Shown here: positions 2,418 to 45,638 of the stretch, one piece after another
How the letters are laid out: every line of letters begins with the position of its first letter
Numbering within the stretch: the first letter of the stretch is position 1
Source: Candidatus Uhrbacteria bacterium
Lineage (GTDB): Bacteria > Patescibacteriota > Patescibacteriia > UBA9934
Direction of reading: 5' to 3'
Assembly: GCA_943359345.1 (NCBI GenBank)
Contig: CALRHE010000001.1
Span: forward strand, 67,995-120,103
Length of the DNA stretch: 52,109 nucleotides
The notes under the pieces: generated by a model
The model's database searches: none
What the model was told of the DNA's origin: nothing
What the model saw: the letters and a program-made list of their open reading frames with translations, nothing else
Program-made: the position numbers and the translations under genes

Positions 2418-2993
2418 ATGACCCGCAGTATTTTTGCCGCCGCCGCGGCCGTGACTTTCATCGCGAGTGCGGTGGTCATCGGCTGGTTCATGCCCAGCCA
2501 GATGGCCGGTTGTTCGCCCCCGGCGGAGGCGCCCACGGCCAATGTCCTGGGCGACGGTAACCAGACGTGGTTGGCCTGCCCGCCCAAGAATTACCACACC
2601 GGAGACGAGGCCTACTCCTTCTCCACGCTGCCGACCCCAGGGTCGGTGGTGGGCACCGAGAAGTTCATGGTCTGGGGACTGCACTCGAAGGCAGAGTGCG
2701 TCACCCTGGGAAACAACCTCGAGCGTACCGACGCCTTCGTGCGCGACGGCCGCTGCTGGATCGAACAGGAGACGGACAACACGTTGTGTCAGATCGCGCA
2801 GAATGATCTGCGCATCGTACACACCTGTGTCGACGGTGCCGGGCAGCCGGTACCGCGCGACGCCGTCACCAACCGCCTGAACACCAAGCGCCAGGCCGTG
2901 CCTGGCCACCCCGGAGTAGACAGTCGCTGCGTGGTCGGCATCACCGACCACGGCTGCGAGCCGAAGCCGGTTGCCGTCGCCAACAACCCCTGA
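2418..2993 (+). CDS. Secreted or lipoprotein-like Cys-rich hypothetical protein (191 aa)
   Basis: AGGAGG SD 4 nt before ATG 2418. Hydrophobic N-terminus ending in MAGC, 8 Cys, GC-rich codon usage. Confidence 0.75.
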   Translation: MTRSIFAAAAAVTFIASAVVIGWFMPSQMAGCSPPAEAPTANVLGDGNQTWLACPPKNYHTGDEAYSFSTLPTPGSVVGTEKFMVWGLHSKAECVTLGNNLERTDAFVRDGRCWIEQETDNTLCQIAQNDLRIVHTCVDGAGQPVPRDAVTNRLNTKRQAVPGHPGVDSRCVVGITDHGCEPKPVAVANNP

Positions 2994-2998
2994 CCCGT

Positions 2999-3052
2999 CG
3001 AGGCCAAGGTGACCGATCTTCCCCTAGTGGAAGTGACGTCGCCCTGGCCTCG
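2999..3052. repeat. Structured hairpin element, copy A
   Basis: CGAGGCCAAGGTGAC...GTCGCCCTGGCCTCG outer stem with inner CTTCC/GGAAG; similar to 3504-3562. Confidence 0.8.
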
Positions 3053-3071
3053 CCTCATTTCTGGAGAACAC

Positions 3072-3461
3072 GTGAGAACCACACTCGTCATCGAAAGTCA
3101 CGACCTGGCGCGCGAGACCTTCGTGCGCATCATCGGCAAGCTCGATGAGCATGAACTTTCCGCTGGAGCCGCGACCATCGAGGAAGCTGAAAGCTTGCTC
3201 GTAACTCGCCGAGACATCGGTCTGGTGCTGAGCGAAGTCCGTTTCCCTGACGGCCGCAGCCACGACCTTCACGCCCGTCTGGCACACCGGCTCTCGCTGG
3301 ATAGAGTCCACTGGGTGGCCATGTCAACGGACTGGGAGGATGAGCTCGTCCAACCGGCCCGAGCCTACTACCAGGCTGCCGGCGTGCCGATGGTCGAAAA
3401 GAAAGACCTGAAGCCCCTAGCCCTGCTCGCCCTCGTGCGAGAGCACATGCCACGGGTGTAA
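3072..3461 (+). CDS. Single-domain atypical response-regulator receiver (CheY-like) protein
   Basis: GGAG SD before GTG 3072. TLVIESH..., ATIEEA, IGLVLSEVRFPDG, VAMST and VEKK match the receiver fold, but the phosphoacceptor position is E. Confidence 0.7.
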   Translation: MRTTLVIESHDLARETFVRIIGKLDEHELSAGAATIEEAESLLVTRRDIGLVLSEVRFPDGRSHDLHARLAHRLSLDRVHWVAMSTDWEDELVQPARAYYQAAGVPMVEKKDLKPLALLALVREHMPRV

Positions 3462-12704: not shown

Positions 12705-13126
12705 AAAATTTTAGCCACAATGGCATCTTGAAGTGAAAACATGGTATCGGCAGCGCTGGCCTGCTCGTGATCATATCCCATCAGGTGCAGAATACCGTGA
12801 ACCAACAGATCAGCCAACTCAAGTTCAAGGTCGCCGTTTTCGGCTTGCCGTTTAGCTTGAGGATAGGAAATCAGCACATCACCCAGCTGACCGCTCAAAG
12901 CACGTTCCCCGGCCGCGAAAGACAAAACATCCGTCACCTTGTCCTGGCCACGATACATACGGTTTAAGCGGCGTATTTCAGTGTCAGTCACAAAGTTCAC
13001 ACTCACACTCCCATCAGACTGCCCGGGTACATGTTTGGCCAAGGCTTGGGACAATTTAGCCAAACGCAGACGGGTCAAGCGCTCCGCTCTGGGAACCTCA
13101 TCTTGATGAATATCAAAACTGATCAT
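12701..13126 (-). CDS. ybeY: rRNA maturation endoribonuclease YbeY
   Basis: LNRMYRGQDKVTDVLSF, LGDVLI, HGILHLMGYDH. Confidence 0.96.
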   Translation of the reverse strand: MISFDIHQDEVPRAERLTRLRLAKLSQALAKHVPGQSDGSVSVNFVTDTEIRRLNRMYRGQDKVTDVLSFAAGERALSGQLGDVLISYPQAKRQAENGDLELELADLLVHGILHLMGYDHEQASAADTMFSLQDAIVAKIL

Positions 13127-14079
13127 GGTACAAGCTTAAAACTATTTGCCATCATTTTAAAAGTTTGTAGAAATTCAATATTCTGAGCATCCACCAAATC
13201 GTAAATCAGCGTATACACACGTGTACCGGCATCCAAATACATGACGCGCTCGTCAGGCCCAATCAAAGCCTGGTAACCCTCTTTAGTGAGAGTTGGCTGT
13301 AAACGGTTAAGCGCCACCTCGCCTACCTGCTCCGTATACCAATCCCCGAGCGTCTGCTCAGCCGCTTTGTCCTGCCACAAGACGTTAACGCCAGCCCCAG
13401 TGGTTGACCTAAAACTAACGCGCTGCGAAGCTGGTGTGCTGGTGGGATTCCAAGTGGTGGGATAAAATATTGTGAACGGTAAGTCCAGACTTTCAAGCAC
13501 GCGGACCGCACCCGTATCCAGCAAAGTTGAGGGTGCTAAACCACGCGGATCAAATCTATGAAAAACTTCGTTGCCGTCTAAATAGGTATCCCCATCAGAA
13601 TCCGGATTACGAAAATCAGTACCGTACAACAGCTCTTCAACATTAGTTAAGCCATCACTATCAGTGTCAACGCCAGAAACTGGCTTGGCTGGTTCCGGTT
13701 CAGGCACTGGCACCTGTGGTTCAGGCTCAATAACCTCTTCAGACGGGGTATCCACTACCTCTGGAGTCCTGAGCAGGCCTTGCGAATACGCCCAGGCCAG
13801 AGCCGCGACAACCAGCAAAATTATTATCAATAAAGCAATAATCACTACGCCGAGTTTTGAACGCTTAGGCACGGCTGGTGATAAGACCTTGGGTGGTTGA
13901 ACTGGGGGCTGGGCTACAGGCTTTGGAAGCGCGACAACTTTAGCTGGCTCCAGCTTGACTTCACGGTCATAAAACTCCTTGGGCAGCGTGTGTATGACGA
14001 TATCCGAATGAGCCGTATCCGGTTTGGGAACGGCGGGCCTGTCTGGGGTTGGAGTTATGGCCTGTCTGTCCTCAAACAT
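13123..14079 (-). CDS. Membrane-anchored protein with DxDxDG (bacterial TSP3-like) repeats and PsbP-like C-terminal domain
   Basis: Pro-rich N-terminus, one TM, DTDSDGL..EE..YGTD..NPDSDGD repeats, and a C-terminal F.I.YP..W...MANSFK domain. Confidence 0.8.
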   Translation of the reverse strand: MFEDRQAITPTPDRPAVPKPDTAHSDIVIHTLPKEFYDREVKLEPAKVVALPKPVAQPPVQPPKVLSPAVPKRSKLGVVIIALLIIILLVVAALAWAYSQGLLRTPEVVDTPSEEVIEPEPQVPVPEPEPAKPVSGVDTDSDGLTNVEELLYGTDFRNPDSDGDTYLDGNEVFHRFDPRGLAPSTLLDTGAVRVLESLDLPFTIFYPTTWNPTSTPASQRVSFRSTTGAGVNVLWQDKAAEQTLGDWYTEQVGEVALNRLQPTLTKEGYQALIGPDERVMYLDAGTRVYTLIYDLVDAQNIEFLQTFKMMANSFKLVP

Positions 14080-14101
14080 GTTCCTCCATGTAACTGTTGA
14101 C

Positions 14102-14126
14102 GGACGGGGCCGAGCCCCGCCCCTAC
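14102..14126 (-). repeat. GTAG-type REP element
   Basis: Minus strand reads GTAG-GGGCGGGGC-TCG-GCCCCGTCC (GTAG foot plus GC palindrome). Confidence 0.75.
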
Positions 14127-14132
14127 AGTGAT

Positions 14133-14750
14133 TTAATTATTTGGCAGCTCTAAAATTTTACCAGGACCATTAGGATTATACCCTGAACGAACTTCTTGAC
14201 CGTCAGCGAAGCTGTCTCCATCAGTGTCGGCCCGAAGTGGATCCGTGCCATAAACCTGAACCTCTTCCCTGTCTCCGAGTAGGTCGCTGTCAGTGTCTGG
14301 CTTAGACACGCTGGTGCCGGCCGCTTGCTCTTGATCATTGTTCAAACCATCGCCATCAGTATCAATAACAATCTCGACTTCGGGTACAGATACCTGAGCG
14401 TCGTCGTCTGGACCTTTGCCGTCAGGTTCATCAACCTTAGCATCAATATCAGCTTGAGTTGTGTCATCACCGTCAGCCAGTGTTTGCTTATCCACTGGAT
14501 TCATAAGTCTAAAAGCCAAGTAGGCCGCTAGACCCATAGCCAAAAAGGCAATCACAACAATCACAACCGTTTTCCACACATGCCCTCCAGAGCCCAGATC
14601 TTTATCTTGAATAATCTGGGGATTACTTGGGGGTGGTGTTGACAGACTAGGCGCTGGGCTTGCTGGAGTCCCAATCCCTGCCACCGGCAAATTGGCTGGT
14701 GGCTCTACGCCTTCAAAGATATCTTGTGGCTGCTGTTTGCTGTCAAACAT
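14133..14750 (-). CDS. Membrane-anchored protein with DxDxDG (bacterial TSP3-like) repeats
   Basis: Pro-rich N-terminus, one TM, DTDGDGL/DTDSDLL/DTDGDSF repeats ending GYNPNG. Confidence 0.8.
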   Translation of the reverse strand: MFDSKQQPQDIFEGVEPPANLPVAGIGTPASPAPSLSTPPPSNPQIIQDKDLGSGGHVWKTVVIVVIAFLAMGLAAYLAFRLMNPVDKQTLADGDDTTQADIDAKVDEPDGKGPDDDAQVSVPEVEIVIDTDGDGLNNDQEQAAGTSVSKPDTDSDLLGDREEVQVYGTDPLRADTDGDSFADGQEVRSGYNPNGPGKILELPNN

Positions 14751-14755
14751 AGAAG

Positions 14756-15646
14756 TTATTTAAGAGGATCGTAACCGCTCTCCACCTCAGTCCCATCGCT
14801 AAATCCGTCGCCATCGGTATCAGCCTTGGTTGGATCAGTTGTATATACATGTACCTCATCCCCATCAGTAAGTCCATCGGCGTCGGTATCAGTTACGTTG
14901 TCTGATGTCCCAAAGACCCTTTCATCCAAAACTACCAAACCATCGATATCCATGTCAGCCTGGTCTTGTGCCTGCTTACAAGCGTAAGCCTCACTCTCGT
15001 TTAGCACCTCACAAGCCTCCGGCGACCCACTGGCCACGGCCTCCGCCAGCTGTTCGGCCTGATCGCACGCAGCTTGATCGATGCCTGCCTCGGCACACTT
15101 ACCGACCGCCACGATCGCAGCCTCAACCTGAGTTTCACACGCGGCTCGAGTCGTGGTTCCTGTAATAGCAGCACACTTAGTCAAACTCATCTCTGCCTGA
15201 GCTTGGAGCAAATACGGGGTATCAGCACAAGCCGCCCGCTCTGGGCCAGACAAAACGTCACAAACTAGTGGATCAACTTTATCAATAGCTATGAGAGACA
15301 CACAATCACTCAAGCCTTCGCCCACGAGCACCTGACAAGCCTCAACTAAGCCTAAACGTCTGGCCGCGTCAGCCCTAGCCAGCTCTAGACACAGCGTATC
15401 AACCGCCTCACAGTCTGCTCCAAGCTGTGATTCAATGGCGTCAACCTGGCTCATAAGGTCTACATCCTGCTTGGCGAGTTTACGATTTTTAAGAACATTT
15501 TGCGCGGCTACAGCTGAAAACACTAGTGCCAAAACACCCAAAACAATCAATCCCAGAGACTGCCAAACGCGCTTATGCTTCCACCATGGATCAGATGGAG
15601 GTATGGGCGAAGGGTCATAATACTGATAATTCTGAAAGTCTTGCAT
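14756..15646 (-). CDS. Membrane-anchored protein with Cys-paired helical repeats and DxDxDG repeats
   Basis: TM near N-terminus, repeated C-x(8-10)-C units, C-terminal DTDADGL/DTDGDGF repeats. Confidence 0.8.
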   Translation of the reverse strand: MQDFQNYQYYDPSPIPPSDPWWKHKRVWQSLGLIVLGVLALVFSAVAAQNVLKNRKLAKQDVDLMSQVDAIESQLGADCEAVDTLCLELARADAARRLGLVEACQVLVGEGLSDCVSLIAIDKVDPLVCDVLSGPERAACADTPYLLQAQAEMSLTKCAAITGTTTRAACETQVEAAIVAVGKCAEAGIDQAACDQAEQLAEAVASGSPEACEVLNESEAYACKQAQDQADMDIDGLVVLDERVFGTSDNVTDTDADGLTDGDEVHVYTTDPTKADTDGDGFSDGTEVESGYDPLK

Positions 15647-15649
15647 ACA

Positions 15650-18600
15650 TTACGGCGCGCAATAATTTAGCTGCACGTTGCTGACTTCAACCATGCCGAT
15701 ACCTGGGAACGAAATGCGGATCGGTACTTGTTGTTCAAAAACATCATCGCACACAAAATTATCTGGCCACGGCAGGAGCACATTCTCACCCTGTTCAATA
15801 AAGCCCGTGGTCTGCACCACGTCACCGTCGTTCTCGGACACAATGGTCACCGCGATCTCGACAATCGAGTCAACAATTTGATCGTACATCTCAGCCATTT
15901 CTTCGTCGGTGTCACCATTGTAAGCGTAATCAAGTCCATTAAAAGTGCTCGTCTCTCGCGGGGTGCCTGCTCTCGGCACAGTCTCAAACTCTTTCTCGTT
16001 GGTAGCAAAGCTATCCTCTCCTGTGCCGTCAGCATTATTGTAACTATTTGACGACCAGTTCTTCATGTTTTCAATCCAAGAGCCGGTGTTACTCAAGTTC
16101 GCCGTATATAACTCATAGCCAGCGGTATCTGGTATGTAGCTGTCAAAATCTTCAGCAATCTCAATTGGATCTAATGACACGATATCATCATCGGGAGCAG
16201 CGTAATTGGAATCGTCAGTTACTTCACCGTCAGACAACAGAATGGCAATGTAACGAGCGTTATCTCCAAGCGAACTGTCAGCAATATCGTCAAACATTTC
16301 TTTGGTTTCTAGCAAAGCCTCATAGGTAAATGTACCGTGACCGTCGACACCCGCTGACAAGGGATCAAACGTAAGAGCATAGGTGTAGGCCGTCAAATCA
16401 TCTTCGCCATCTGGACCCACAAAGTCAAAGGGCTCAGGACCAAAGAAAGTGCCCTCAAGCGAGGACGAGGAATCGTTGCAATAATCGCCAAAGTTGGCCG
16501 AGCTGCAGAGAATGTCATTGTTGACACCCAGTACATTACAAACAGTTTCAGGGTGATAGAAACACGTGCCCCCTACCAAGCCACGATAACCAATGGCGCC
16601 AATCTGTACATCGTCACCGAGCTTGTCATACAGCTCCTCGGCCGCGGCTGCGATGGCATCTTTTGCTACCTCAAGTCGGTTGTCTTCGCCGGCCTCGGGT
16701 AAGTCATTACTGCCAACTTCCCACTGCATGGTATAGGACAAATCGGTCACAAACAGCACATAGGTGGTTGGTAACTCGACCTCATCCAAAGACACACTAG
16801 CTGTGAGCGAGGTAGCAACACTGCAGGCTGGTACTGTCAGGGTGGCGGCGTTAGGCAACTCAGAGGTTAAATCCTCGCTATAACTGAAGAATTCAGCTAC
16901 CTCAGAAGCATCAGCACCGGGCTGATTAGTGGTCATCTGGAGCGGCACCGAGGCGTAGGTGAACGGACAAGTGCTATTACATGATTGATTGCAGCCTGGC
17001 ATGACACAAGTACCTGTTCCGCATTCGCTCGACGATAGACATGACGTACCGTTATTTTCTAGTCCGCCTCCGTTACATACGCCTACGCTCTCACACGTGT
17101 AGCTGTCTTGAATTTGACCCAAAACCGTGCAAGTACCATCAATAGTGCTGGTCGCAAAGTCATACCAGACTGGTAGGATGCTGTTGGCATCGCAATACTC
17201 ACCACCATTAATCTCGCCATCACCACAAAACTCTCCCGAAGTGACTTCATAACGACAAGCGAGCGAACAAGCCGTACAAGTTGAACCGTAAGCCGAATCG
17301 CAACCGGTCCCGTTATCTAAACCTTCGTCACACTGCTCTTCCCCCACGTATACGTAACTATCACCACAAACATTAACCTTGCACTGATCTGTGCAGGAGT
17401 CGGTACCCTCAATGTTGCCGTCATCGCACTCCTCGCCCGGATCAATAGCTCCGTCACCGCAACTACCAATTTCAGTACATTCAATATCAAACCAATCACT
17501 CTCAAAGTAATCGCAACTAGCACCCGCGTCGTCGTCGCAAGCCATCACACGCGTACTGCCTAGCGTACAAGCTACCCGATTACCCACACCGTTGCCGCCA
17601 CACACACCACCGTTACAGTCAGTATCGGAGGTACATGGCAGGTTTGCATAGCCAGCTGGAGAGGTATTAGCACACAACTTACCGTCCCAGGTGGCGTCAA
17701 CGCCGTCACACGTTTCACTCGAATCGATAGTGCCGTCGCCACAATAAGCGGCCGGTCCAGCACAGTCCCAGGCGCAAGTAGCGTTCGGGCTATCCGCGTA
17801 CACACCATTTACGTCAGCACAACTACCAGCCCCTGCCCCGTAAGCGCGTGAGTCCGCAAAGCTCATGAGAACACTCAAGCCACAGTCACAAACTTCGCCG
17901 CCGGCAAGCTTACCGTCGCCGCAATAAAAGGCCGTGTAATAAGAACAGTCATTACCACAGAACCCGTAAGTCCCATTTAATGAACCGTCATCACAATCTT
18001 CGCCGGCTTCATTATTTATTTGGATAATGCCGTCACCACAAGTTACGACTATACAGGTAGCTGAGCTGTCATCTGCATAGTTATCACAACTACTGTTACA
18101 AATCTGGCTTGAAGTCCCGGCTAAACCTTCAGGCGTGGTGCATGGTGCCGCGCTACCGCCAAGTTGGCCTAACTCACACACCTCAGCACCCCCCACTACA
18201 CCATCACCACAGCTAGTCGACAAACCGTAAATGCTCGTGCCATCGCAGAAGGCCGTAGCTTCAAAACCATTGGCTGCGGCACTCGAATTTCCGATGCTAA
18301 TGGTCACGCCATCAAGGTTATCGTCTTCGATTGGATTGACCCATGTCCCGGTGGCGTACTCAAGATCGGCATACAAGTAAGCTTGAGTGTCACCAACCGC
18401 TTTGTAATGGTAGGCGTGCGAATTAACTGGACACACGTACGTACCGGTAAGCTCGTTGACACACGTTTCAGCGTCATAAGCCTCATATCCGCTACCACCG
18501 CAAGCCACATAGTCATTGATGGGATCAGCAGATAAAGTCGTGCTGAGCGCGCCGCCTAGAATGCTATTCCAAGATTCCCAGATGCTCGAAGTCAAAGACC

Positions 18601-21600
18601 TGACAAAAGTTCCAGACGGCAGGCTTGGCACTACACCGTTAAGAGTTTTGTAGTCAATGAGAGCGCTGCGAGCGTCTGTTAGGTCAGTCAACCGACGCGT
18701 ATCACGCCGCAAATATTCACTTGGCGAGGCGCATGCAACCTCTGTCTCCACACACATAGTCACGTTGTCGACGTTAACCGCAAAAGCAAAGTTATCAACT
18801 ATCTGGTTGTAAATGTTAATAGTGTCATCGCTAGCACCGGCGTTATATGACAAAGCATAAACATTTGCGTACAGGTCGCCAGTAGCCGTCTGGTTGGGAG
18901 CCACCACATATGTAGTCCGACCGTCCTGTGCAGCCAAATAACCGTCAACTTCAGTTTGCGATACTTCGCCAGTAAAACCTTGAGACTCGTACCAGGCTTC
19001 AGGACTCAAATAGTCTTGATTGCTGACAACACGAATACCAATCGCGTCCGAGCTACCGGAAACCTCAAACAAGTACTCTTTAATAACGTTAGCTGACTCT
19101 GTAATCAGCGGACGCACCACAATTACCTCAGGCAAATCATCCTGCGGGCCAGCTTCAGCTTGGTCGCGACAATACAGGGTTGAAAAATTCATCCAACCTG
19201 AACCTTCTTCTGCTCCCAGATCACCATCAGCAGTGTCGCTCCAGGGTAGTTGGCTAAAATCTCCCGGCCAAGGATTTTCACACAGGAACGCCAAGACCGG
19301 AGCCGAGCCTGTAACTGTGTCTGCAGTCGGTAAATTAGTGACATTGTCCTCCACGGCTGCGGTTGCGATAACTGCATCCTCGCCATTTTCTCCAACCGCT
19401 GTCACAGTCGCGATCTCAGACCCAACTTCTGATTGTTCAACTGCAAATATCTGCGTCCCCTGCTCAGTCTCCCAGTTAGTCCAAGTCCAGGAATACACGC
19501 CTTCAATCGAATCAATGGCCTGTGGAATACCACCAGAACGTGATTCGGCCGTGGCCACAAATGTGTGTTGCTCTTCACCAGTAGCAAAGACATATGGTGA
19601 CTCAGTGTAAGTATCGGTAACCGTAACTGTATCCAGAGAGCAAATCTCAGGCCCAACCGTAAAACCCTGGAAGGTTGAACCATTCACACCCACCCCAAGA
19701 TCAGTCGTCACGCCGCCAGTCAGGCCATCAGTAACGTCATCGTCACCCTCAACAACCAGCTCATAACTACCGTTAGCTACCAGCAAAGCGTCTAGATGCA
19801 TTTGTACCTTGTAAGTACCGTCACCAAGCGCTGTTTGACCAAAAGAACTAATCGGTGCCACGCAGTCACCTGGTGCAGCGTTAACCTGATTACCGGTCAT
19901 TAACCACACGAGCTTATTCCATAATTTCAAGATTGGATTGCGCGGCTCAAGGGCTAGGGTTGTGTGATCGTCAGGACAAATACCGTCAGCCGTGCTAGAC
20001 AAATCCAGACGGGCATACATGCGCGGCTTACCAAGCGTAGCCCCATTCTGAGCAGCCTCATATTCAAAACTACTGAGATCCATCTCCTCAGTAAAAATTG
20101 CATACACAGCCGCGTTTTGACAGACAGCTTCACCATTAGGGAACAAGGTCAAGGTTGGACGCTCCAGACAACAATTATTGGTGCCTACACCATAAGCTGC
20201 CGGATCAGTACAGTCTTGATCTGTTTCAGCCGCACATAATAAGGACAAGGTAGCAGCAGTAGTCAGACCAGATTCAGCCTCAGTGACTTCGATAGTGGCT
20301 ACAGCTTGCTGTGTGCTTGGATCAACTTCAAACACAGCCTCGTTAGACACTGAGGCCACCTGGATTGGGTCAAGCTTACCGTCACCTGTAACCCCCGATT
20401 CGCAAGTTGCTAATTCACCTGTACCCGTCAGACCATCACCGCAGAAAGATGGGGTGGCATACAAACTTGAGGAACCCTCAAGTAAACAATCAGCCGAACA
20501 ACCATCACCGTTTAAGCTATTGCCATCATCACAAGCCTCACCGTATTCAATCCCGTTAAGGCCACAGCTACTGCCGTAAGTCACGGATGATCCTTCCCAC
20601 AAACAACTAGCGGAACACCCGTCGCCATCAGTTACATTGCCATCTTCACACTCTTCGGTAGGTAGCTCAATTGAACCATCATTACATACGGCCCCGCCTA
20701 TTTCAGACAGTGTTGGCGAGCCCTCCCACAAACATTCATTTGAACACCCATCGCCCCGGGCGGCGTTACCATCGTCACACTCTTCTCCCGCCAAAGCTGT
20801 GGGGCTGGTAACGGCCACATCACTATTACCGCAACTAACCCCAATCGCAGCCGCTCCCTCAGATAAACACCCGGCCGAACAACCATCACCATCAAGCAAA
20901 TTACCGTCATCACAATCTTCACCTGTGCCGTCAGGGGCGCGGTTAACTAGATTGTCACCACAGCCTGGAGCCTCGCTGGCCTCACGCAAGCAGCTGGCCG
21001 AACAACCATCACCATTAGCTACATTGCCATCTTCACACTCCTCACTGTAATCAATAACTCCGTCACCACAAATCGCCGTTTGTGGCCAACTCCCAGCTGC
21101 GGTACATGAAGCCGAGCAACCAGCTGAGATATCACTTAAATTAGTGTCAACCAAACCAACTTCCCAGACAGCTACACGGGTGGCAGGATTATTATCCACG
21201 TCTTCATCAGCAATCGGATCGGTCCAACCCCAGTTATAGTTGAAACCGTTCAAACGTTGGCCGGAAACCGAACATGAGTCAGCCTCGCCATAAGCTTCAC
21301 CGGTAAAGGTTTGCTGCGCACCCACTGTAGCCACGGTCACCTCAGACGGCGACAAAGTCAGTCTATCAATAGCACACACTGAAGCGTCCTCGCGCACGCG
21401 GAAAGTCCAAGAGTAGTCGCCAGCGTAATTGGTACGCGTTAAAGCTACCCCACTCGTACTGGTAATCGCTCCATCAACAATCACCCTGTAAAACTTAAGC
21501 GGGATCAAATCCACAGAATTAAAAGCAAAACCGGTGCAGCTGGCATCAGCGTCATAGGTACAAGTGACCGTAGTGCCTGCCACGCTTTGTAAGTTCGAAC

Positions 21601-24600
21601 ACAGTTCATTATCGCAAACGTACAGCTGAATGGCGCCAGCGGCCTCAAGACTATTTTTCTCCATGGCTGTATTAAAGCTCGCGCCCACCTCAGCATTCAC
21701 GCAAGCCTCAGTACAGGTAGGCCAAGAGTTGGTAATGTAGGGGTCTGAAAAATTAACCGTCAACGCAGCCTGTGCTTGCAAGCCGCTGTCAGTTTCTGTG
21801 ACAATTACTTCCGTCTCACCTTCAGCTAGGGCTCCAATGAAGGCACACAAACTGTCACCGGCCGTACAGGTTGCGTCATAACCGTCTTCACTTGGAATAT
21901 CAACCACGCGCGCATAGCTTGGGTCCACCGACCAACTCCAATGAAAGTCAGGATTTTGCAAAACAGTACAACCATTAATCGGCACGGCCGTAAAAGCTTG
22001 TGTACCGTTCAATTCACGAATAGTGGCTGCGTCAGGCGTAATGACAACATTTTCAAGCTGACACAAGCTGGCGTCGGCACGCGTGGTAAAGGTCCAAACA
22101 CTTGGATTAGCCAGAGGTACACCTTCACTAGATAAAATCGACTCAAACGCAGTGACCTGATAAACCGTACTAATCTTCAAGCTTGTGGCTGGATAAAAGA
22201 GTACGTTAGTTGAGGTTGTCAGGTACTCACCGGCCACGGGGCTGGTTTGATCGCAGGGATTATTGCCGCTACCCAAACACTCTTCAAGCACAAGGTTATT
22301 TAAAGTGGCTTCGTTCATGGGCAACGTGAAGTCCACAAACACTGCAGCGTTCACACACACGCCAGGGCCGTTGTCGAAATCATCATTCGGAACACCTGAC
22401 ACAGCCGTATCTGAGCACTCAAAAACTATTTCCGGTGCAGTTGGTATCAGACCACTCGAAAAACTCCAGGCGTAAGCAGCTAGTTCACCCGCCGCTGACA
22501 CAACTCCGTCAGCTGAGACTTCAAGATTAGTAGAATTACTGGCAGTGCCCGCGGAGTTACTTGCTAGCACCGCACCGGTCATAGCACCGTCTGGCACCAC
22601 CACACTAATCTCAGCCTCTGACCAAGATTGGATATCACCAATTACAGCTGGGGTGAAGGTTACGCTGCCTTGGCTGTCACCAAAATTATCTCCATACAGC
22701 GTGACCGCATCCCCGGCCACGGCCTGGGCCGGATCAATTGCACATAAACCAGGGGTCGGAGATTCATCCGTCAGTGTAAAGGTCGAAGGGTTGGATTCAT
22801 TGCCATTGGCCACTAAAATCAAGTTGTATGATCCTAATTCGCCAAGTCCTTTAGGCACAATCACAATCACCTCTTGGTATGACCAAAAATCATCGGCACA
22901 GGCGGCTGGGAAACTGTCTGTGTCAGCCAAAACTCGCTCACCCGAGGCCTGGTCCTCAAACCACACCGTACCCACACCACTACCAAAGTTGGTTCCGGAT
23001 AACGTTATATATTGACCCTCACCACCAGAACTCGGGGTTAGGCTAGAGATAAACGGCACAGCGGCAACCTGCGAGGTTACCGTAAAAGCAATCGCGTTCG
23101 AGACGATGCTGTCCACACTTATCGCTACACCATATTGTCCGTCACTCATCGACGGCACCGTGACCTCGGCCGCAGTGGCTGACCAACTGTTATAGCTACC
23201 GGCCTCAAGGGTGTCGAAAGTGATTATCGAGGAGCCGCGCTCGTCTCCAAAACTCACGCCCGTAATCGTCACCGCGTCGTTAATCGCACCGACACTAGGA
23301 TCGATGTCACACAAGCCCGGATGATTAACGTCGTTAACATCAAAATCAGCGATTAAGAGGCCGTTATCATCAAAGGTTGATTCGACCCCACCCGTGGCCG
23401 TGGTCACGGTAATCGGTCCATCAACTGCGCCCTCAGGTACTACAACAATGATCTGGGTATTGCTCCAGGCGTCAGTACAGCTAGCCAGTTCAGCCGTGAT
23501 GGTGCCGGCAGCACTCGTAAACAAAACCGTACCTGCCAGACTGCCGAAATTCTCTCCTTGGATAGTTACCCAGGTGCCGGGTGCACCATCCGGTGGCGTA
23601 ATCGATTCGATCACGGGCAACGAGGTACAAATACCGCCTTCACACATGCCGCTTGAACACTCGTCGTTGGCGTTACATGACGAGCCATCACAGGCGCCAC
23701 AATAATCTGGGCTGGCACTGTCGCCGCCACAGTCTGGACCAGTCTCAAGTCCATCCGTGACACCGTTGAAACAGGTAGGCGGCCGCATCTCAACCGTGAT
23801 CGAATCTTCATCAGCATTACCAGCGATGTCAATGACAGTGGCCGTTAATTTATACGAGCTACCGTTCAATAACCCAGCCGTATCCCACACGCTATTGATC
23901 AAGACATTGGTCAAATCTTCACCACTGGCCGGAACTGAATCAAAAATCAAATCGCTAACGGCAAAATCAGCTACTGAAACTTGAGCATCGTCGGTGGCAC
24001 TCACCTGGACATCTACCAACGACTCACTCGGGACTCCGGCTCCGTCATCTGGCAACTCCATGTGAGCCACTGGGTCTTCAGTATCTATAAGCGTACCGGT
24101 CGTGAAGGCTGAAGCACATAAGCTGTTTGCACATGACAACACTGTGCCCATCGAACTCTTGACATCAGTATTGACTGTCACGTTTACGAGAGCATTCTCA
24201 TCAAAACAGCCGCGGTCGGAATCTGGGTCTGGACACGGCGTGGCTGGTACAAAAGATACCCGGCTACCACTCACAGTCAGCTCACCTGGAATTTCAACTC
24301 CCCCGTTATCGTAAATAAACTTAATATTCTCGCTTGTAACCGTGCTAGCATCAAGGGTTTTACTAAAGGTAATCTGGGGTACAACGTTGCGAATCAACAC
24401 CTGTCCCGCTGGTTTGTGCAAGGTGATAGAAAAGACACTGGCTGAGCCACCGCCTAAACCGCCGTCAGCCACGTCATCAAAACTTGATCCACCTGCGTCG
24501 TCGCTCGTGGCGTTTATGAGAGCTTCGAGCACCAGCTGAGTAATCCCGAACGAGGCCAAAATTATAAACAGGCCCACACCGGCGTTGATAATCAAACGCT

Positions 24601-24892
24601 TGGCGCGCGTAACTCTGTCTTCATTCCCGCCAGCAGTCATCCACAAAAAGCCGCCATAAATGAGGATGATCATGGCGATCATGCCGAGGATACCTAGGCC
24701 CCCCCGAATAATCTTAGCTACGATGATGGTCGGATCTTGCGCACTCAAACCCGCCGCTGTACCCACCGTATCCAGACCTTCAACGCTCACGTCAGCTGAC
24801 TGTGCCAGCAGCTCCGGCGCCGCAACGCTAAACGCGAGCGTCAGGGCAAGCGCTAGAGCCAAGAAAATTTGTGTAAAAACTGACGATTTCAT
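15650..24892 (-). CDS. Giant (3080 aa) multidomain surface protein: VirB2-like pilin, Ig-like, IPT/TIG, myxobacterial Cys-rich repeats, PsbP-like, pilin-like, vWA
   Basis: Uninterrupted ORF. Signal peptide plus YGGFLWMTAGG..VTRAK..IINA pilin motif; P..G..G..VTI.G.NFG...W...I.V.VP IPT repeats; CGDG..EECDDGN..GDGCS..C repeats; VLFVTDLSYT...LLSDG vWA. Confidence 0.9.
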   Translation of the reverse strand: MKSSVFTQIFLALALALTLAFSVAAPELLAQSADVSVEGLDTVGTAAGLSAQDPTIIVAKIIRGGLGILGMIAMIILIYGGFLWMTAGGNEDRVTRAKRLIINAGVGLFIILASFGITQLVLEALINATSDDAGGSSFDDVADGGLGGGSASVFSITLHKPAGQVLIRNVVPQITFSKTLDASTVTSENIKFIYDNGGVEIPGELTVSGSRVSFVPATPCPDPDSDRGCFDENALVNVTVNTDVKSSMGTVLSCANSLCASAFTTGTLIDTEDPVAHMELPDDGAGVPSESLVDVQVSATDDAQVSVADFAVSDLIFDSVPASGEDLTNVLINSVWDTAGLLNGSSYKLTATVIDIAGNADEDSITVEMRPPTCFNGVTDGLETGPDCGGDSASPDYCGACDGSSCNANDECSSGMCEGGICTSLPVIESITPPDGAPGTWVTIQGENFGSLAGTVLFTSAAGTITAELASCTDAWSNTQIIVVVPEGAVDGPITVTTATGGVESTFDDNGLLIADFDVNDVNHPGLCDIDPSVGAINDAVTITGVSFGDERGSSIITFDTLEAGSYNSWSATAAEVTVPSMSDGQYGVAISVDSIVSNAIAFTVTSQVAAVPFISSLTPSSGGEGQYITLSGTNFGSGVGTVWFEDQASGERVLADTDSFPAACADDFWSYQEVIVIVPKGLGELGSYNLILVANGNESNPSTFTLTDESPTPGLCAIDPAQAVAGDAVTLYGDNFGDSQGSVTFTPAVIGDIQSWSEAEISVVVPDGAMTGAVLASNSAGTASNSTNLEVSADGVVSAAGELAAYAWSFSSGLIPTAPEIVFECSDTAVSGVPNDDFDNGPGVCVNAAVFVDFTLPMNEATLNNLVLEECLGSGNNPCDQTSPVAGEYLTTSTNVLFYPATSLKISTVYQVTAFESILSSEGVPLANPSVWTFTTRADASLCQLENVVITPDAATIRELNGTQAFTAVPINGCTVLQNPDFHWSWSVDPSYARVVDIPSEDGYDATCTAGDSLCAFIGALAEGETEVIVTETDSGLQAQAALTVNFSDPYITNSWPTCTEACVNAEVGASFNTAMEKNSLEAAGAIQLYVCDNELCSNLQSVAGTTVTCTYDADASCTGFAFNSVDLIPLKFYRVIVDGAITSTSGVALTRTNYAGDYSWTFRVREDASVCAIDRLTLSPSEVTVATVGAQQTFTGEAYGEADSCSVSGQRLNGFNYNWGWTDPIADEDVDNNPATRVAVWEVGLVDTNLSDISAGCSASCTAAGSWPQTAICGDGVIDYSEECEDGNVANGDGCSASCLREASEAPGCGDNLVNRAPDGTGEDCDDGNLLDGDGCSAGCLSEGAAAIGVSCGNSDVAVTSPTALAGEECDDGNAARGDGCSNECLWEGSPTLSEIGGAVCNDGSIELPTEECEDGNVTDGDGCSASCLWEGSSVTYGSSCGLNGIEYGEACDDGNSLNGDGCSADCLLEGSSSLYATPSFCGDGLTGTGELATCESGVTGDGKLDPIQVASVSNEAVFEVDPSTQQAVATIEVTEAESGLTTAATLSLLCAAETDQDCTDPAAYGVGTNNCCLERPTLTLFPNGEAVCQNAAVYAIFTEEMDLSSFEYEAAQNGATLGKPRMYARLDLSSTADGICPDDHTTLALEPRNPILKLWNKLVWLMTGNQVNAAPGDCVAPISSFGQTALGDGTYKVQMHLDALLVANGSYELVVEGDDDVTDGLTGGVTTDLGVGVNGSTFQGFTVGPEICSLDTVTVTDTYTESPYVFATGEEQHTFVATAESRSGGIPQAIDSIEGVYSWTWTNWETEQGTQIFAVEQSEVGSEIATVTAVGENGEDAVIATAAVEDNVTNLPTADTVTGSAPVLAFLCENPWPGDFSQLPWSDTADGDLGAEEGSGWMNFSTLYCRDQAEAGPQDDLPEVIVVRPLITESANVIKEYLFEVSGSSDAIGIRVVSNQDYLSPEAWYESQGFTGEVSQTEVDGYLAAQDGRTTYVVAPNQTATGDLYANVYALSYNAGASDDTINIYNQIVDNFAFAVNVDNVTMCVETEVACASPSEYLRRDTRRLTDLTDARSALIDYKTLNGVVPSLPSGTFVRSLTSSIWESWNSILGGALSTTLSADPINDYVACGGSGYEAYDAETCVNELTGTYVCPVNSHAYHYKAVGDTQAYLYADLEYATGTWVNPIEDDNLDGVTISIGNSSAAANGFEATAFCDGTSIYGLSTSCGDGVVGGAEVCELGQLGGSAAPCTTPEGLAGTSSQICNSSCDNYADDSSATCIVVTCGDGIIQINNEAGEDCDDGSLNGTYGFCGNDCSYYTAFYCGDGKLAGGEVCDCGLSVLMSFADSRAYGAGAGSCADVNGVYADSPNATCAWDCAGPAAYCGDGTIDSSETCDGVDATWDGKLCANTSPAGYANLPCTSDTDCNGGVCGGNGVGNRVACTLGSTRVMACDDDAGASCDYFESDWFDIECTEIGSCGDGAIDPGEECDDGNIEGTDSCTDQCKVNVCGDSYVYVGEEQCDEGLDNGTGCDSAYGSTCTACSLACRYEVTSGEFCGDGEINGGEYCDANSILPVWYDFATSTIDGTCTVLGQIQDSYTCESVGVCNGGGLENNGTSCLSSSECGTGTCVMPGCNQSCNSTCPFTYASVPLQMTTNQPGADASEVAEFFSYSEDLTSELPNAATLTVPACSVATSLTASVSLDEVELPTTYVLFVTDLSYTMQWEVGSNDLPEAGEDNRLEVAKDAIAAAAEELYDKLGDDVQIGAIGYRGLVGGTCFYHPETVCNVLGVNNDILCSSANFGDYCNDSSSSLEGTFFGPEPFDFVGPDGEDDLTAYTYALTFDPLSAGVDGHGTFTYEALLETKEMFDDIADSSLGDNARYIAILLSDGEVTDDSNYAAPDDDIVSLDPIEIAEDFDSYIPDTAGYELYTANLSNTGSWIENMKNWSSNSYNNADGTGEDSFATNEKEFETVPRAGTPRETSTFNGLDYAYNGDTDEEMAEMYDQIVDSIVEIAVTIVSENDGDVVQTTGFIEQGENVLLPWPDNFVCDDVFEQQVPIRISFPGIGMVEVSNVQLNYCAP

Positions 24893-30536: not shown

Positions 30537-31157
30537 CTACTCATTGTATTCTGGGAGTGGAAACGAGCCAATTTTTTCGAGCGGTAAACCGCGGATCCAG
30601 ACTCGACCAATCAAATTTTCCTCAGGCACCGGACCAAAAGCCCGGCTATCAAAACTGGCATCTCGGTTGTCGCCCATTAGATAGTACTCGTCCTCACCTA
30701 AGGTTTCACTATCACGACCAGGCGTGTAGTCATCTATATAGTCTTCCGTCAACACAAAACCGTTAGGATTGTCTGCATTATAAATGGTGATCTTGCCATC
30801 ATTAACCTCGACCTCCTCGCCTGGTAAACCGATCATGCGCTTAATATAAAATTGCTTTTCCTCGCCTGATGGCGGATGAAAAACTACAATTTCTCCCCGC
30901 TCTGGCTGTCTGAAATGAAAGCTGAGCTCATCAATGATCAGGTACTCCCCATCCTCAAAGTTTGGCTCCATGGAAACACCCGCCACCACAAATGGCTGGA
31001 CTAAAAAATAGCGGACTGGCAAAATAATCGCTAAAGCCAGGGCGGCAATTTGTACAATTTCAACAACAAAGGTGGCTACCGCTCCCAAGGTTGGACCAAA
31101 CCAACGCACGAACGACGAGGTAGTCGAGGTGCGAGTCTTACGACGAAAAAAAGCCAT
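30537..31157 (-). CDS. lepB: Signal peptidase I
   Basis: GVSMEP (Ser), YIKRMIGLPG (Lys), GDNRDASFDSR. Confidence 0.96.
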   Translation of the reverse strand: MAFFRRKTRTSTTSSFVRWFGPTLGAVATFVVEIVQIAALALAIILPVRYFLVQPFVVAGVSMEPNFEDGEYLIIDELSFHFRQPERGEIVVFHPPSGEEKQFYIKRMIGLPGEEVEVNDGKITIYNADNPNGFVLTEDYIDDYTPGRDSETLGEDEYYLMGDNRDASFDSRAFGPVPEENLIGRVWIRGLPLEKIGSFPLPEYNE

Positions 31158-31214: not shown

Positions 31215-33656
31215 TTACAGGCTCGGCAAGCTTGAGGGTGGTTCTACACCCTCAAGTGGTACTTCAGGTGCAATCGGGCCGGGATCAGCTGGCGCCTCGC
31301 CACCAGCTTCAAGGTTAGCAATTGCGTCTTTTACCACCTGGTCGTCTGGATTCAGTCTTGCAACCCGCTTAAGCAGCGTGAGCGCAGTTTCGGTATCGCC
31401 TGCTTGTGAATGCAAGGCAGCCAAGTACCACATGGCATTACTATAATCAGGGTAAATTTCCAAAATACGTTCTAGTTCAGCTTCAGCCTCAGTGCTACGT
31501 TCCATTTTGAGATAAATAATTGCTAGCTGGAAACCAAGCCCGACATCGTTAGGCTGAACTTGAGTTAATGCTTGCAGGCGCTCTGCGGCACCTTCAAGAT
31601 TACCCTGGCGTTCATAGGTAGCCGCTAAATAATAATGCGCGGGAGCGTAATCTGGTTTAAGTTGAATGGCCTTTTCAAAATTTTCAGCAGCCAGACGAAG
31701 ATTTTCAATTTCGTTAGTGGCAGCCGTAGCTTTAATTTCAGTCTCAACGTCTGCAAGCCCCTGTAAGTCTTCGGCGCGATCAGCCACCGCCAAGTAGACA
31801 CGCCCAAGATCGGTCTGGTAAGCAGGGTTGTTTGGCTCGATGACCAAAGCCTGAACATACATATTGGCCGCATAATTCTGAGCGTTCTGGATGAAGGGCA
31901 TGAGTTCACGATAAATCGAACCGCTAATGGCCCAGTTCACACTGTCAAACTCACCCAAAGCCGTTGCTTGCCTGGCCGCCCGAATAGACGCATCTGCCAA
32001 ACTAGCTAGACGCTGCTTATCTGCAGTACCAAAATCTTGATCAGCCAGTGCTTCGTTTAGCACCACTCCGGCTTGCGCTAAATAGGCCGTAGCCAGATTA
32101 CGCATGAACACAGCGTTCGAACCATCACGCTGGACAACCTTAATCATCTGATCCACCAAGATCTCGGCCGTGGCCCCCTGGCTACTCAGACGTGCAGCCT
32201 TAGCAAAAGCGATTTCAGCCGAATGTCGGGAAGCTAAGGCAAACATCGTCAGTAAACCAACGACTACAAATACCACTAGTCCGCTCGTAACACACAGAGC
32301 CGTACGCGGCGCCTGACTAAAATCTAGCTGGCGCACTTGGCGCACTGACTGAGCCACTAAAAGCCCACTCAAACCCCAGACCAAAATCACGAGCGACATG
32401 TTAAGCGGTGTCAATAACTGTACAGCTAAGAGTGATACCCAACCAGCTAAGAGCGCGTAATTCAAGCGCCAAGCTGGTTGTTGACGCCCAGCTATAATCC
32501 TACCAAAACTAATCGCAGTCACCACGACTAACAGCCCGAGCCAACTGGCTAAGCCCAACACGCCGTTCGTGGCTAAGAGCGTGAGGGGATGCATCTGGGC
32601 TCGATCAAAAGGTGTATTCCAAAAAATCGTGTTATTGACAGCCACCGGTCTAAAATGAGCGTAGTCAAGATCAAAACTGCCTGGCCCTGAACCGAACAGC
32701 AAGCTCTGAAGATTTTGCTGTACCGTCTGATTAGCTATGTCCCAACTAGCGTTAGTGGACGGGGACACCACCACCGGCACCTTTAAATTAAGCGGCGTTT
32801 TTATCAATAAAAATATACTCGCAATTGCAAACAAAACTATGGGTAGAGTAAAACGACGCAGGCTTGGGAAGTGACTAGCCTCTAAGTACGCCAAGAACAT
32901 CAGGGCCGCTAAACCAAACATGAAGGCAGCCCAGAGTGTCCAAAAATCAATCGCGACCAATAAGAGTACGGTCACAAAACACACAAAACCAATAAGTAAG
33001 CGTGTAAAAATTCCGCTTGTCCCAACAGGAATAAGCGAACTCTCATCGTCACTGTCTACCAACACAAAACCCAACCCCACCACACACACCGGGATTAACC
33101 AAGCTACAAAAGCATTAATATTCCCAATGCTGTTAAAACCAATCGTCTGGGTGAAAGCAAACGGAATAAAATGCACTCCAATGATGGAAAATAAACTAAA
33201 CAAACCTATAACGCCGGCGGATATCATAAGCGCCAGCAATGACCGGCGCGCCAATCCGCTGTCGCCAGACTGCATGAGTGTATAAAACAGGCTGACACCG
33301 CAAGCTGCAGTTAAAAAACTAACATACTCCTGACCGCCATAGCCTAACCAAGATTCCAATCCGGCCACAGACAATGAGGCGGACATTAAGAGCGCAATTA
33401 GCATCAAGATGGGCAGCAGGTTAAGCAGCCAGCCACCACGCAGATTGATACGACGCTCAATCACCATGCTGCCTAGTAATCCAGTAGTTGCCAGCAACAC
33501 CAACACCACCATGACCAACTGTTTATTCATTTCCAAGGCTTCAGTTGTAAAGGGGGCAAAAACCAGAGGCAACAAAAAAAACACTGCCAGAATACTCCAA
33601 TGCGTCAGCGCTCGGAGCGGCTTTAAGAGCTTTTCAAAAGATACCTGGCTAGACAT
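31215..33656 (-). CDS. Multi-TM O-antigen-ligase-like protein with C-terminal TPR repeats
   Basis: About 12 TM segments, LLFGSGPGSF loop and LLATNGVLG; TPR motifs (AIQLKPDYAPAHYYLA, PDYSNAMWYLA). Confidence 0.8.
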   Translation of the reverse strand: MSSQVSFEKLLKPLRALTHWSILAVFFLLPLVFAPFTTEALEMNKQLVMVVLVLLATTGLLGSMVIERRINLRGGWLLNLLPILMLIALLMSASLSVAGLESWLGYGGQEYVSFLTAACGVSLFYTLMQSGDSGLARRSLLALMISAGVIGLFSLFSIIGVHFIPFAFTQTIGFNSIGNINAFVAWLIPVCVVGLGFVLVDSDDESSLIPVGTSGIFTRLLIGFVCFVTVLLLVAIDFWTLWAAFMFGLAALMFLAYLEASHFPSLRRFTLPIVLFAIASIFLLIKTPLNLKVPVVVSPSTNASWDIANQTVQQNLQSLLFGSGPGSFDLDYAHFRPVAVNNTIFWNTPFDRAQMHPLTLLATNGVLGLASWLGLLVVVTAISFGRIIAGRQQPAWRLNYALLAGWVSLLAVQLLTPLNMSLVILVWGLSGLLVAQSVRQVRQLDFSQAPRTALCVTSGLVVFVVVGLLTMFALASRHSAEIAFAKAARLSSQGATAEILVDQMIKVVQRDGSNAVFMRNLATAYLAQAGVVLNEALADQDFGTADKQRLASLADASIRAARQATALGEFDSVNWAISGSIYRELMPFIQNAQNYAANMYVQALVIEPNNPAYQTDLGRVYLAVADRAEDLQGLADVETEIKATAATNEIENLRLAAENFEKAIQLKPDYAPAHYYLAATYERQGNLEGAAERLQALTQVQPNDVGLGFQLAIIYLKMERSTEAEAELERILEIYPDYSNAMWYLAALHSQAGDTETALTLLKRVARLNPDDQVVKDAIANLEAGGEAPADPGPIAPEVPLEGVEPPSSLPSL

Positions 33657-45334: not shown

Positions 45335-45338
45335 AAGC

Positions 45339-45638
45339 TTAGCCGTTGGCTTCAAGAGTTGCCTGCACCTCAGCCATAATTTGATCAGCTTCGGTTTCTA
45401 GAGCCGCCATAGACAAATCGCGCTGGTGACGTGCGGCCCTAATTGAAATATTCAAGTCCTCAAGTTCATGAGTTGACTGAGCAGTCATGTCAGCCCGCAG
45501 CACAGCGTCAAACTTTTTGAGTTGCTCCAGACTCATGTCTGGAATCAAAACCGCCCAAGCCTGTTTTTCAGCAACCGAAAAATGAGACGCCGCCAGCATT
45601 TCAGCTAAATGTTGTCCGTACGCACGCGCATCATCCAT
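45339..45638 (-). CDS. Small helical hypothetical protein (99 aa)
   Basis: ATG ORF divergent from rel and abutting the large ORF. Confidence 0.7.
   Translation of the reverse strand: MDDARAYGQHLAEMLAASHFSVAEKQAWAVLIPDMSLEQLKKFDAVLRADMTAQSTHELEDLNISIRAARHQRDLSMAALETEADQIMAEVQATLEANG

Follow-up and report, generated by a model that had tools for sequence, protein, structure and literature searches.

A giant protein of a Candidatus Uhrbacteria bacterium with a VirB2-like membrane hairpin, an internal pilin-like domain and a C-terminal vWA domain, proposed as a membrane-anchored adhesin

Giant fibrillar adhesins such as Salmonella SiiE and the RTX adhesins follow a logic of an anchor, a long immunoglobulin (Ig)-like stalk and a distal binding head; they are exported by type I secretion, held at the outer membrane and built on calcium-stiffened bacterial Ig-like (BIg) stalks. 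The tip adhesins PitA and SpaC of sortase-assembled pili carry a von Willebrand factor type A (vWA) domain flanked by β-strand regions, and RrgA is a tip adhesin of the same type. RrgA is named in the available part of a report on modular pilins with vWA modules, in which PilB of Streptococcus sanguinis is described as a bimodular type IV pilin whose vWA module, equipped with a metal ion-dependent adhesion site (MIDAS), is used in adhesion (PMC8179133). For Patescibacteria, the accessible text of PMC12102498 reports VirB2-like pilins in arrays of 2-11 pilin genes and treats VirB2 as a small protein, while the accessible text of PMC10633639 reports essential pilins in the type IV secretion system (T4SS) cluster of Southlakia, along with several essential adhesins. 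Giant surface proteins of candidate phyla radiation (CPR) bacteria have been noted in general terms in the available part of PMC8080830. Here we describe a gene for a giant protein with features that resemble those of several of these systems. It lies in a stretch of 52,109 nucleotides, in the following called the window, of a Candidatus Uhrbacteria genome (assembly GCA_943359345.1, contig CALRHE010000001.1, positions 67,995 to 120,103).

The gene is a single open reading frame of 3,080 codons with an ATG start at 15650-24892 on the minus strand, as the initial annotation of the window had stated, and it is a real, conserved gene with orthologues in relatives. The source genome comprises 732 kb in 24 contigs at an estimated completeness of 97.8%, with the giant gene on contig C1. 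The protein computed from the translation has a mass of 319.5 kDa, an isoelectric point of 4.05 and 126 cysteines, and a hydropathy scan confined its hydrophobic segments to the first 128 residues. With a probability of about 0.6, we regard it as a Sec-exported, hairpin-anchored, acidic and disulfide-rich fibrillar adhesin of a Candidatus Uhrbacteria-like cell and not as a pilus subunit.

A signal peptide and a VirB2/TrbC-like hairpin had been recognized at the N-terminus in the initial annotation, and both are supported: the signal peptide and the Pfam family T4SS_pilin (PF18895) are present in all 21 orthologue N-termini. In the giant protein PF18895 matches residues 67-120 (window 24533-24694) with 28.4 bits when the whole protein is searched and with 32.5 bits on the N-terminal 170 residues alone, at a cut-off of 26.6 bits; the NCBIfam model NF045849 scores 26, short of the 40 it requires. 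Hydrophobic maxima span residues 3-31, 55-89 and 97-128, the last two being the helices joined by the loop NEDRVTRAKR. The cleavage site of the signal peptide was placed by reading and not by a prediction tool. According to the positive-inside rule, the topology of the hairpin would place the remaining ~2,950 residues outside the cell.

The same hairpin gives rise to the main rival explanation, in which the giant protein belongs to a T4SS-type (VirB2-like) pilus, be it as subunit, tip or decoration, and its hairpin co-polymerises with small pilins. The score above the curated cut-off counts in this direction and against our proposal, as the hairpin might be built into a T4SS pilus and not simply serve as an anchor. 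The genome furthermore encodes four PF18895 proteins in all, and a T4SS-like cluster on contig C8 (L041:1824-11039, plus strand) with an M23 peptidase, a PrgI-family protein, a VirB4-like ATPase (644 amino acids, aa), two proteins without Pfam families (891 and 545 aa) and a 232-aa protein. The VirB4-like ATPase was detected with PF19044 and PF12846 and missed by PF03135, which is a problem of that model. Together with the gene directly upstream, which encodes a 595-aa protein, the giant gene forms a two-gene array of PF18895 proteins whose anchors are 47% identical over 102 aa, as in the arrays described in the available text of PMC12102498; the essential T4SS-cluster pilins of Southlakia (PMC10633639, available part) also speak for such a role. 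However, with 3,080 residues the giant protein is not a small VirB2 pilin encoded with virB4, and in the assembly its gene (contig C1) is not a neighbour of the VirB4-like gene (contig C8), whereas the patescibacterial VirB2-like pilins with which it shares the hairpin are treated as small (PMC12102498, same restriction). A 2,950-residue extension on every subunit would be hard to fit with helical packing. In addition, a 430-aa protein of the same genome (contig C8, L042:5520-6809, minus strand), encoded next to a DsbA-like thioredoxin gene, consists of a PF18895 hairpin and a Peptidase_M15_4 domain, a hydrolase of the cell wall, and this fusion suggests that the hairpin is a general membrane anchor in this organism. 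We therefore consider incorporation into a T4SS pilus unlikely. The available parts of PMC12102498 and PMC10633639 make no mention of VirB2 fusions of several thousand residues. For annotation, this locus means that a PF18895 hairpin is not a sure sign of a small pilin, since in these genomes it can also stand at the start of proteins several thousand residues long.

At the opposite end of the protein, a vWA domain with a MIDAS-like DLSYT..T..SDG pattern had been read from the sequence at about 15870-16770. In comparison with the Protein Data Bank (PDB), a profile of the orthologues retrieved the vWA domain of collagen VI (E 3.1e-14), mussel PTMP1 (5.3e-13), PitA (1.7e-10) and many integrin I domains. 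An AlphaFold2 model of residues 2650-3080 (mean predicted local distance difference test, pLDDT, 76.9; predicted template modelling score, pTM, 0.79) adopts the Rossmann-like α/β fold of vWA domains, and a Foldseek search with this model placed the pilus tip adhesins PitA (1.2e-10) and SpaC (2e-7) at the top of 305 matches at E up to 0.001. The Pfam families VWA_2 (PF13519) and VWA (PF00092) were detected in 17 and 15 of the 21 orthologues, respectively. The MIDAS is formed by D2717, S2719, T2721, T2854 and D2888, with the motifs DLSYT at residue 2717 and LLSDG at residue 2885; D2717, S2719, T2854 and D2888 stand in columns that are invariant in 21 sequences. Two observations on the window copy weigh against the assignment: the second MIDAS serine, present in most orthologues, is replaced by T2721, and no Pfam vWA family matched at E up to 0.01. 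The window copy carries long cysteine-containing insertions between the MIDAS elements, and a phmmer search of its C-terminal region against the PDB yielded nothing useful. The vWA identity thus becomes clear when orthologue profile, model and MIDAS columns are considered, and cannot be seen in the sequence of the window alone. The β-strand regions on both sides of the vWA core probably form one sandwich.

PitA (7w6b) and SpaC (6m3y), the best structural matches, share with the giant protein the vWA domain flanked by β-strand regions. In contrast to these sortase-pilus adhesins, the giant protein contains neither an LPXTG signal nor a terminal hydrophobic tail, ends with VQLNYCAP and appears to be anchored N-terminally by its hairpin; the sequence identity is 11%. 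The likeness to SiiE and the RTX adhesins lies in the succession of anchor, Ig-like stalk and distal binding head, whereas the giant protein would depend on Sec, be anchored in the cytoplasmic membrane and be rich in disulfide repeats.

From these features we propose the following model. After Sec export and cleavage of the signal peptide, the hairpin would be embedded in the cytoplasmic membrane, its basic loop facing the cytoplasm, and the rest of the protein would project outward as a stalk. The distal vWA domain is predicted to bind a ligand on a host or partner cell via Mg2+ or Mn2+ held by the MIDAS. The pilin-like domain between stalk and tip, described below, may be a non-polymerising descendant of the globular domain of a pilin and link the stalk structurally to a tip cassette that can be exchanged. 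Probable partners of the giant protein are the 595-aa protein encoded upstream and three membrane proteins encoded downstream. It counts against the model that we infer the host, the ligand and the surface location. Instead of adhering to other cells, the protein could scaffold the envelope, act in a matrix or in self-aggregation, or sense mechanical forces at the surface of its own cell, but such a role seems improbable to us. It would agree with the use of vWA domains for self-assembly and for binding to a matrix, the sequence matches being headed by collagen VI and mussel PTMP1, with the TSP3-type calcium-binding repeats encoded downstream, which are typical of matrix proteins, and with the lack of a known host for the Uhrbacteria organism. 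But in structural comparisons bacterial pilus tip adhesins rank first, and the tip varies within the family, which would fit partner-specific recognition better: on reading the sequence a vWA domain was not seen in one relative (G277), and by a rough count with a regular expression only 59 of 110 giant representatives have a DxSx[ST]M motif within their C-terminal 500 residues. For the recognition and holding of partner cells by ultrasmall Patescibacteria other than the cultivated Saccharibacteria, the family of giant proteins represents a concrete and testable candidate for the attachment device.

The part between anchor and tip (Table 1) contains a series of Ig-like, TIG and cysteine-repeat domains that would make up the stalk. 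The Ig-like and four IPT/TIG units listed in the initial annotation were recovered by Pfam as Big_5 in three stretches, the best at residues 842-937, and as TIG in four stretches (E 9.8e-22; 77.2 bits, cut-off 20.9), the best at residues 530-604. The five cysteine-rich repeats of the type CGDG..GDGCS, previously placed at about 20470-21075, were confirmed at about 20483-21070, with GDGCS motifs at residues 1294, 1335, 1380, 1423 and 1462. For the further cysteine repeats, CGDG motifs were located in the second cysteine-rich region at residues 2228, 2285, 2324, 2384, 2478 and 2556, where DUF4215 matched as well. Over the whole protein, both the NCBIfam model TIGR02232 (myxo_disulf_rpt; seven stretches, 119.1 bits) and the Pfam family DUF4215 (six stretches, 53.3 bits) scored above their cut-offs of 20.8 and 27 bits.

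Table 1 Features of the giant protein and its neighbouring genes; positions refer to the window
Feature	Position	Strand	Residues	Remarks
Sec-type signal peptide	24803..24892	-	1 to ~30	Ends LLAQ before S; direct reading, hydrophobic 19-mer peak at 3-31
VirB2/TrbC-like two-helix membrane hairpin	24512..24730	-	~55-127	Basic loop NEDRVTRAKR; PF18895
First Ig-like (Big_5-type) region	23777..24445	-	~150-372	Approximate borders, by reading
Small Cys knot		-	374-422	Just ahead of TIG units
Four IPT/TIG units	22508..23620	-	~425-795	Borders from repeated GxxVTIxGxNFG pattern
Ig-like/Big_5 stalk region	21083..22495	-	~800-1270	Best Big_5 stretch 842-937; remainder suggested by repeat-like sequence
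Five myxo-type Cys-rich acidic repeats	20483..21070	-	1275-1470	CGDG..EECDDGN..GDGCS..C
Stalk region without assigned family	19292..20482	-	1471-1867	No Pfam family at E up to 0.1
Highly conserved module, fold not assigned	18755..19291	-	1868-2046	Second half corresponds to the earlier 'PsbP-like unit'
Type IV pilin head-like domain without α1-N	18245..18754	-	2047-2216	Long helix (RDxxRLxDL...Y...NG), loop, short helix, small β-sheet
Second Cys-rich repeat region	16958..18244	-	2217-2645	DUF4215 match in segment
C-terminal adhesion head (predicted)	15653..16945	-	2650-3080	AlphaFold2 model and orthologue profile
vWA core	15860-16768	-	~2709-3011	Modelled; β-strand regions on both sides (2652-2706, 3013-3078)
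Upstream partner gene, 595 aa	24902..26689	-		Paralogous VirB2-like anchor and Big_5; Pfam T4SS_pilin 40.6 bits, Big_5, TrbC
Three downstream single-pass membrane proteins (296, 205, 318 aa)	13123..15646	-		TSP3_bac in 296- and 205-aa proteins

Between the stalk and the second cysteine-rich region, the initial annotation had noticed a segment with RRDTRRL, NGVVP and LSADP, and had compared it to the head of GspG-type and type IV pilins, noting that the N-terminal prepilin helix is absent here. The segment was located with RRDTRRL starting at residue 2062 (window 18707), NGVVP following within it and LSADP at residue 2120. Its motif, comprising RDxxRLxD, a tyrosine, NG, VPxLxSGTFVR, SxWxSW and DPLN, is kept in all 21 orthologues. 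The pilin-like character is more than chance, although structure and profile comparisons support a likeness to pilins only to a moderate degree. Less probably, the head is unrelated to type IV pilins; a long amphipathic helix packed against a small sheet would then be a widespread arrangement, and the RDxxRxxD motif convergent. We think homology with the heads of type IV pilins probable, without regarding it as settled.

Several comparisons argue for this homology. The model of the head (pLDDT 72, pTM 0.70) contains two helices, one of 29 residues and one short, along with three strands. In a structure search that did not use Foldseek and covered 48,161 chains, 16 of the top 18 rows carried titles of type IV pilins or pseudopilins, the remaining two being 'putative PilM'; all 18 matched in one register, in which model residue ~13 corresponds to pilin residue ~25, the start of α1-C. 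A second structure comparison returned pilins in nine of nine entries. When the head profile was applied to 301 genomes, it found three small proteins only, all of them true prepilins with GFT(L/I)IELL N-termini. An unbiased comparison set was obtained from 35 prepilins of relatives, chosen by their N_methyl match only. Against this set hhalign aligned the head with 65.8% probability and an E value of 5.7e-5 over 29 columns, restricted to the helix and in a register just after the hydrophobic α1-N; the neighbouring module, used as control, reached 0.1%. An earlier hhalign result of 95% against three pilins was set aside as circular, as the head profile itself had picked these pilins.

Other results argue against homology. 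Without its helix the head aligned to pilins with 1.3% probability, so that the sequence similarity detected by hhalign is limited to the helix. The structural Z scores against pilins did not exceed 4.8, and according to the warning of the tool such values can reflect a common arrangement. No Foldseek match was obtained for the head model below E 0.8, no Pfam pilin family was present in 21 head sequences, where cysteine-rich families such as WAP matched an insertion only, and searches of the PDB with the head sequence (phmmer) and profile gave no pilin. Of the original comparison, the absence of the prepilin helix stands, and the likeness to pilin heads is moderately supported. The head defines a large family without a Pfam model, with 1,319 representatives (clusters at 50% identity) at an E-value limit of 0.001, of which 1,027 remain when the limit is set to 1e-10; no Pfam domain is recorded for eight close matches.

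Whatever its ancestry, the head cannot work as a polymerising pilin, because it has no hydrophobic α1-N and is kept in genomes in which no PilC or prepilins were detected. It is internal to the protein and has no class III signal (IPR012902, PF07963), and the sequence ahead of its helix is polar, contains cysteine and reaches a maximum 19-residue hydropathy of 0.92. Among the 150 best representatives of the family, 110 of which have at least 2,000 residues, none carried a prepilin motif in the first 60 residues. In the source genome, neither T2SSF (PilC) nor N_methyl, T2SSG or a prepilin motif was detected; no search was made for a prepilin peptidase. PilC and prepilins were each present in 28 of 41 relatives, largely in the same genomes. 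Of 40 relatives, 12 yielded neither, and the head module is carried by 10 of these. Among them, five genomes that are 98-100% complete in 2 to 30 contigs (G001, G002, G006, G012 and G014) keep the giant protein with its head. The retention of the head in these genomes indicates that the domain is independent of the type IV pilus.

This distribution also bears on the idea that the giant protein attaches through its head to a type IV pilus, for instance in a minor-pilin tip complex like that of PilY1, and is thereby a pilus-borne adhesin. The order of pilin module, linker and vWA domain with MIDAS indeed resembles PilB of S. sanguinis (7b7p; PMC8179133, available part), which is among the matches of the C-terminal profile (E 2.8e-4). 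Type IV pili are common in Patescibacteria, and the source genome encodes a lone PilB-type T2SSE ATPase of 607 aa with an MshEN domain on contig C9 (L043:11694-13514, plus strand), situated between an unassigned 330-aa gene, itself downstream of FtsH, and an RNA methyltransferase gene. PilB of S. sanguinis, however, has a class III signal peptide and a hydrophobic α1-N and polymerises into type IV pili, whereas the head of the giant protein begins 2,046 residues inside, lacks α1-N, is separated from the vWA domain by ~430 residues of cysteine repeats and is present in genomes that yielded neither PilC nor prepilins. Moreover, the giant protein has a membrane anchor of its own, and the search of a nearly complete source genome gave no PilC, prepilins or T2SSG. 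Anchoring on a type IV pilus is thus unlikely, and docking by way of the head is the most improbable of the roles considered here. The earlier statement that the polypeptide joins parts of two unrelated pilus systems can be upheld for the ancestry of its domains, not for their function. Likewise, of the proposed membrane- or pilus-anchored tether for attachment, the membrane-anchored form is the best reading, which we infer, and the form anchored on a type IV pilus is disfavoured. In the literature searched, no description of this architecture or of an internal pilin-like head was found; known already are modular pilins with vWA modules (PMC8179133, available part) and, in general terms, giant CPR surface proteins (PMC8080830, available part).

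Homologs were searched in 41 relatives with a query of 346 residues (residues 1870-2215) covering the conserved module and the head. Matches were obtained in 35 of them, mostly in frames of ~3,060-3,610 residues; the six relatives without a match are 66-95% complete and consist of 50-180 contigs. The 20 full orthologues retrieved were all intact. A profile of the pilin-like segment detected the family in 17 of 17 genomes sampled from the class (the own genome, one of the order and 15 of the class) as compared to 3 of 284 genomes from the rest of the phylum. The giant family therefore occurs in every genome sampled from one class. A recent chimera was considered and rejected on the basis of the orthologues across the class. 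Many public records with a Uhrbacteria-type giant gene are titled 'uncultured Gammaproteobacteria bacterium' (loci L066, L067, L069 and others), apparently as mislabels.

The module preceding the head (residues 1868-2046) is the most conserved of the parts aligned, with a mean column identity of 50% across 21 orthologues. Its second half had been described as a PsbP-like unit (~18780-19050), for which no support was obtained: no Pfam family, those of PsbP/Mog1-like domains included, matched the module or residues ~1948-2038 at E up to 0.1, the module profile found nothing better than E 0.33 in the PDB, with a Kelch protein as best match, and an Atlas feature search with the window segment and a stand-alone protein (P0009) returned unnamed clusters only, with scores up to 0.85. 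The second half, recognizable by DAIGxRV, stays joined to the pilin-like head in one split gene and also among stand-alone proteins. In two of the latter, P0009 (274 aa) and P0004 (308 aa), encoded on contigs of 54.7 and 17.9 kb, respectively, a signal peptide is followed by nothing but the DAIGxRV half-module and the head.

The giant gene is split in two lineages, at two different points of the conserved unit. In all four sampled genomes of one family (G058, G231, G110 and G197; L111-L114) the split lies exactly after the pilin-like helix, and the downstream gene starts with its own signal peptide directly before PxLKEGTYL...WPSW; the two genes overlap by one base in one genome and lie four bases apart in another. 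In G277 (L063) the split is located inside the preceding module, between the EYLF-type and the DAIGxRV-type segments, and the downstream protein of 834 aa has a signal peptide and a head with the canonical NGTYP, with no vWA domain seen by reading. An origin of the splits from assembly errors or frameshifts was rejected, since four of four genomes of the family share the split, the signal peptides are proper and the genes adjoin or overlap in two of the genomes. The splits inside the unit, together with its stand-alone forms, suggest that the conserved unit is the junction between the stalk and an exchangeable tip.

A further-reaching interpretation, which we put forward as tentative and rather doubtful, is that the second half of the module and the pilin-derived head form a connector by fold complementation, through which a separately secreted tip cassette of head, cysteine repeats and binding domain snaps onto the anchored stalk. 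Its ancestor would have been a modular minor pilin with a vWA tip that lost its α1-N and was captured by a VirB2-anchored stalk, and where a lineage has lost the type IV pilus, the fibre would take over as its attachment device. This interpretation is based on the splits, the stand-alone proteins, the differences in the tip between lineages and the retention of the head where PilC and prepilins were not found. A complex prediction with the helix-bearing tail of the first gene and the start of the second gene, which bears the head, of the G058 split gave 0.39, 0.10 and 0.01 against a mark of 0.32, a result that was obtained without controls and permits no verdict. If the homology to pilins holds true, a pilin module has been re-used outside any type IV filament, at the position where the gene naturally splits, which would point to a modular exchange of binding tips.

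The giant gene is part of a five-gene block made up of the gene of the 595-aa protein, the giant gene and the three membrane-protein genes, and each of the 20 orthologous loci has this block in unchanged order. The 318-aa membrane protein has no Pfam TSP3_bac match and shows DxDxDG-like motifs by reading; the three downstream proteins are possible calcium-binding partners of the fibre.

The DNA of the window occurs in 15 public DNA sequencing runs of six studies on lake or freshwater metagenomes; no RNA run was among those listed, which is not evidence either way. Elsewhere the window encodes a signal peptidase I (30537-31157), an 813-aa protein with C-terminal TPR repeats (31215-33656, minus strand) and an open reading frame of 1,108 aa (42029-45355, minus strand).

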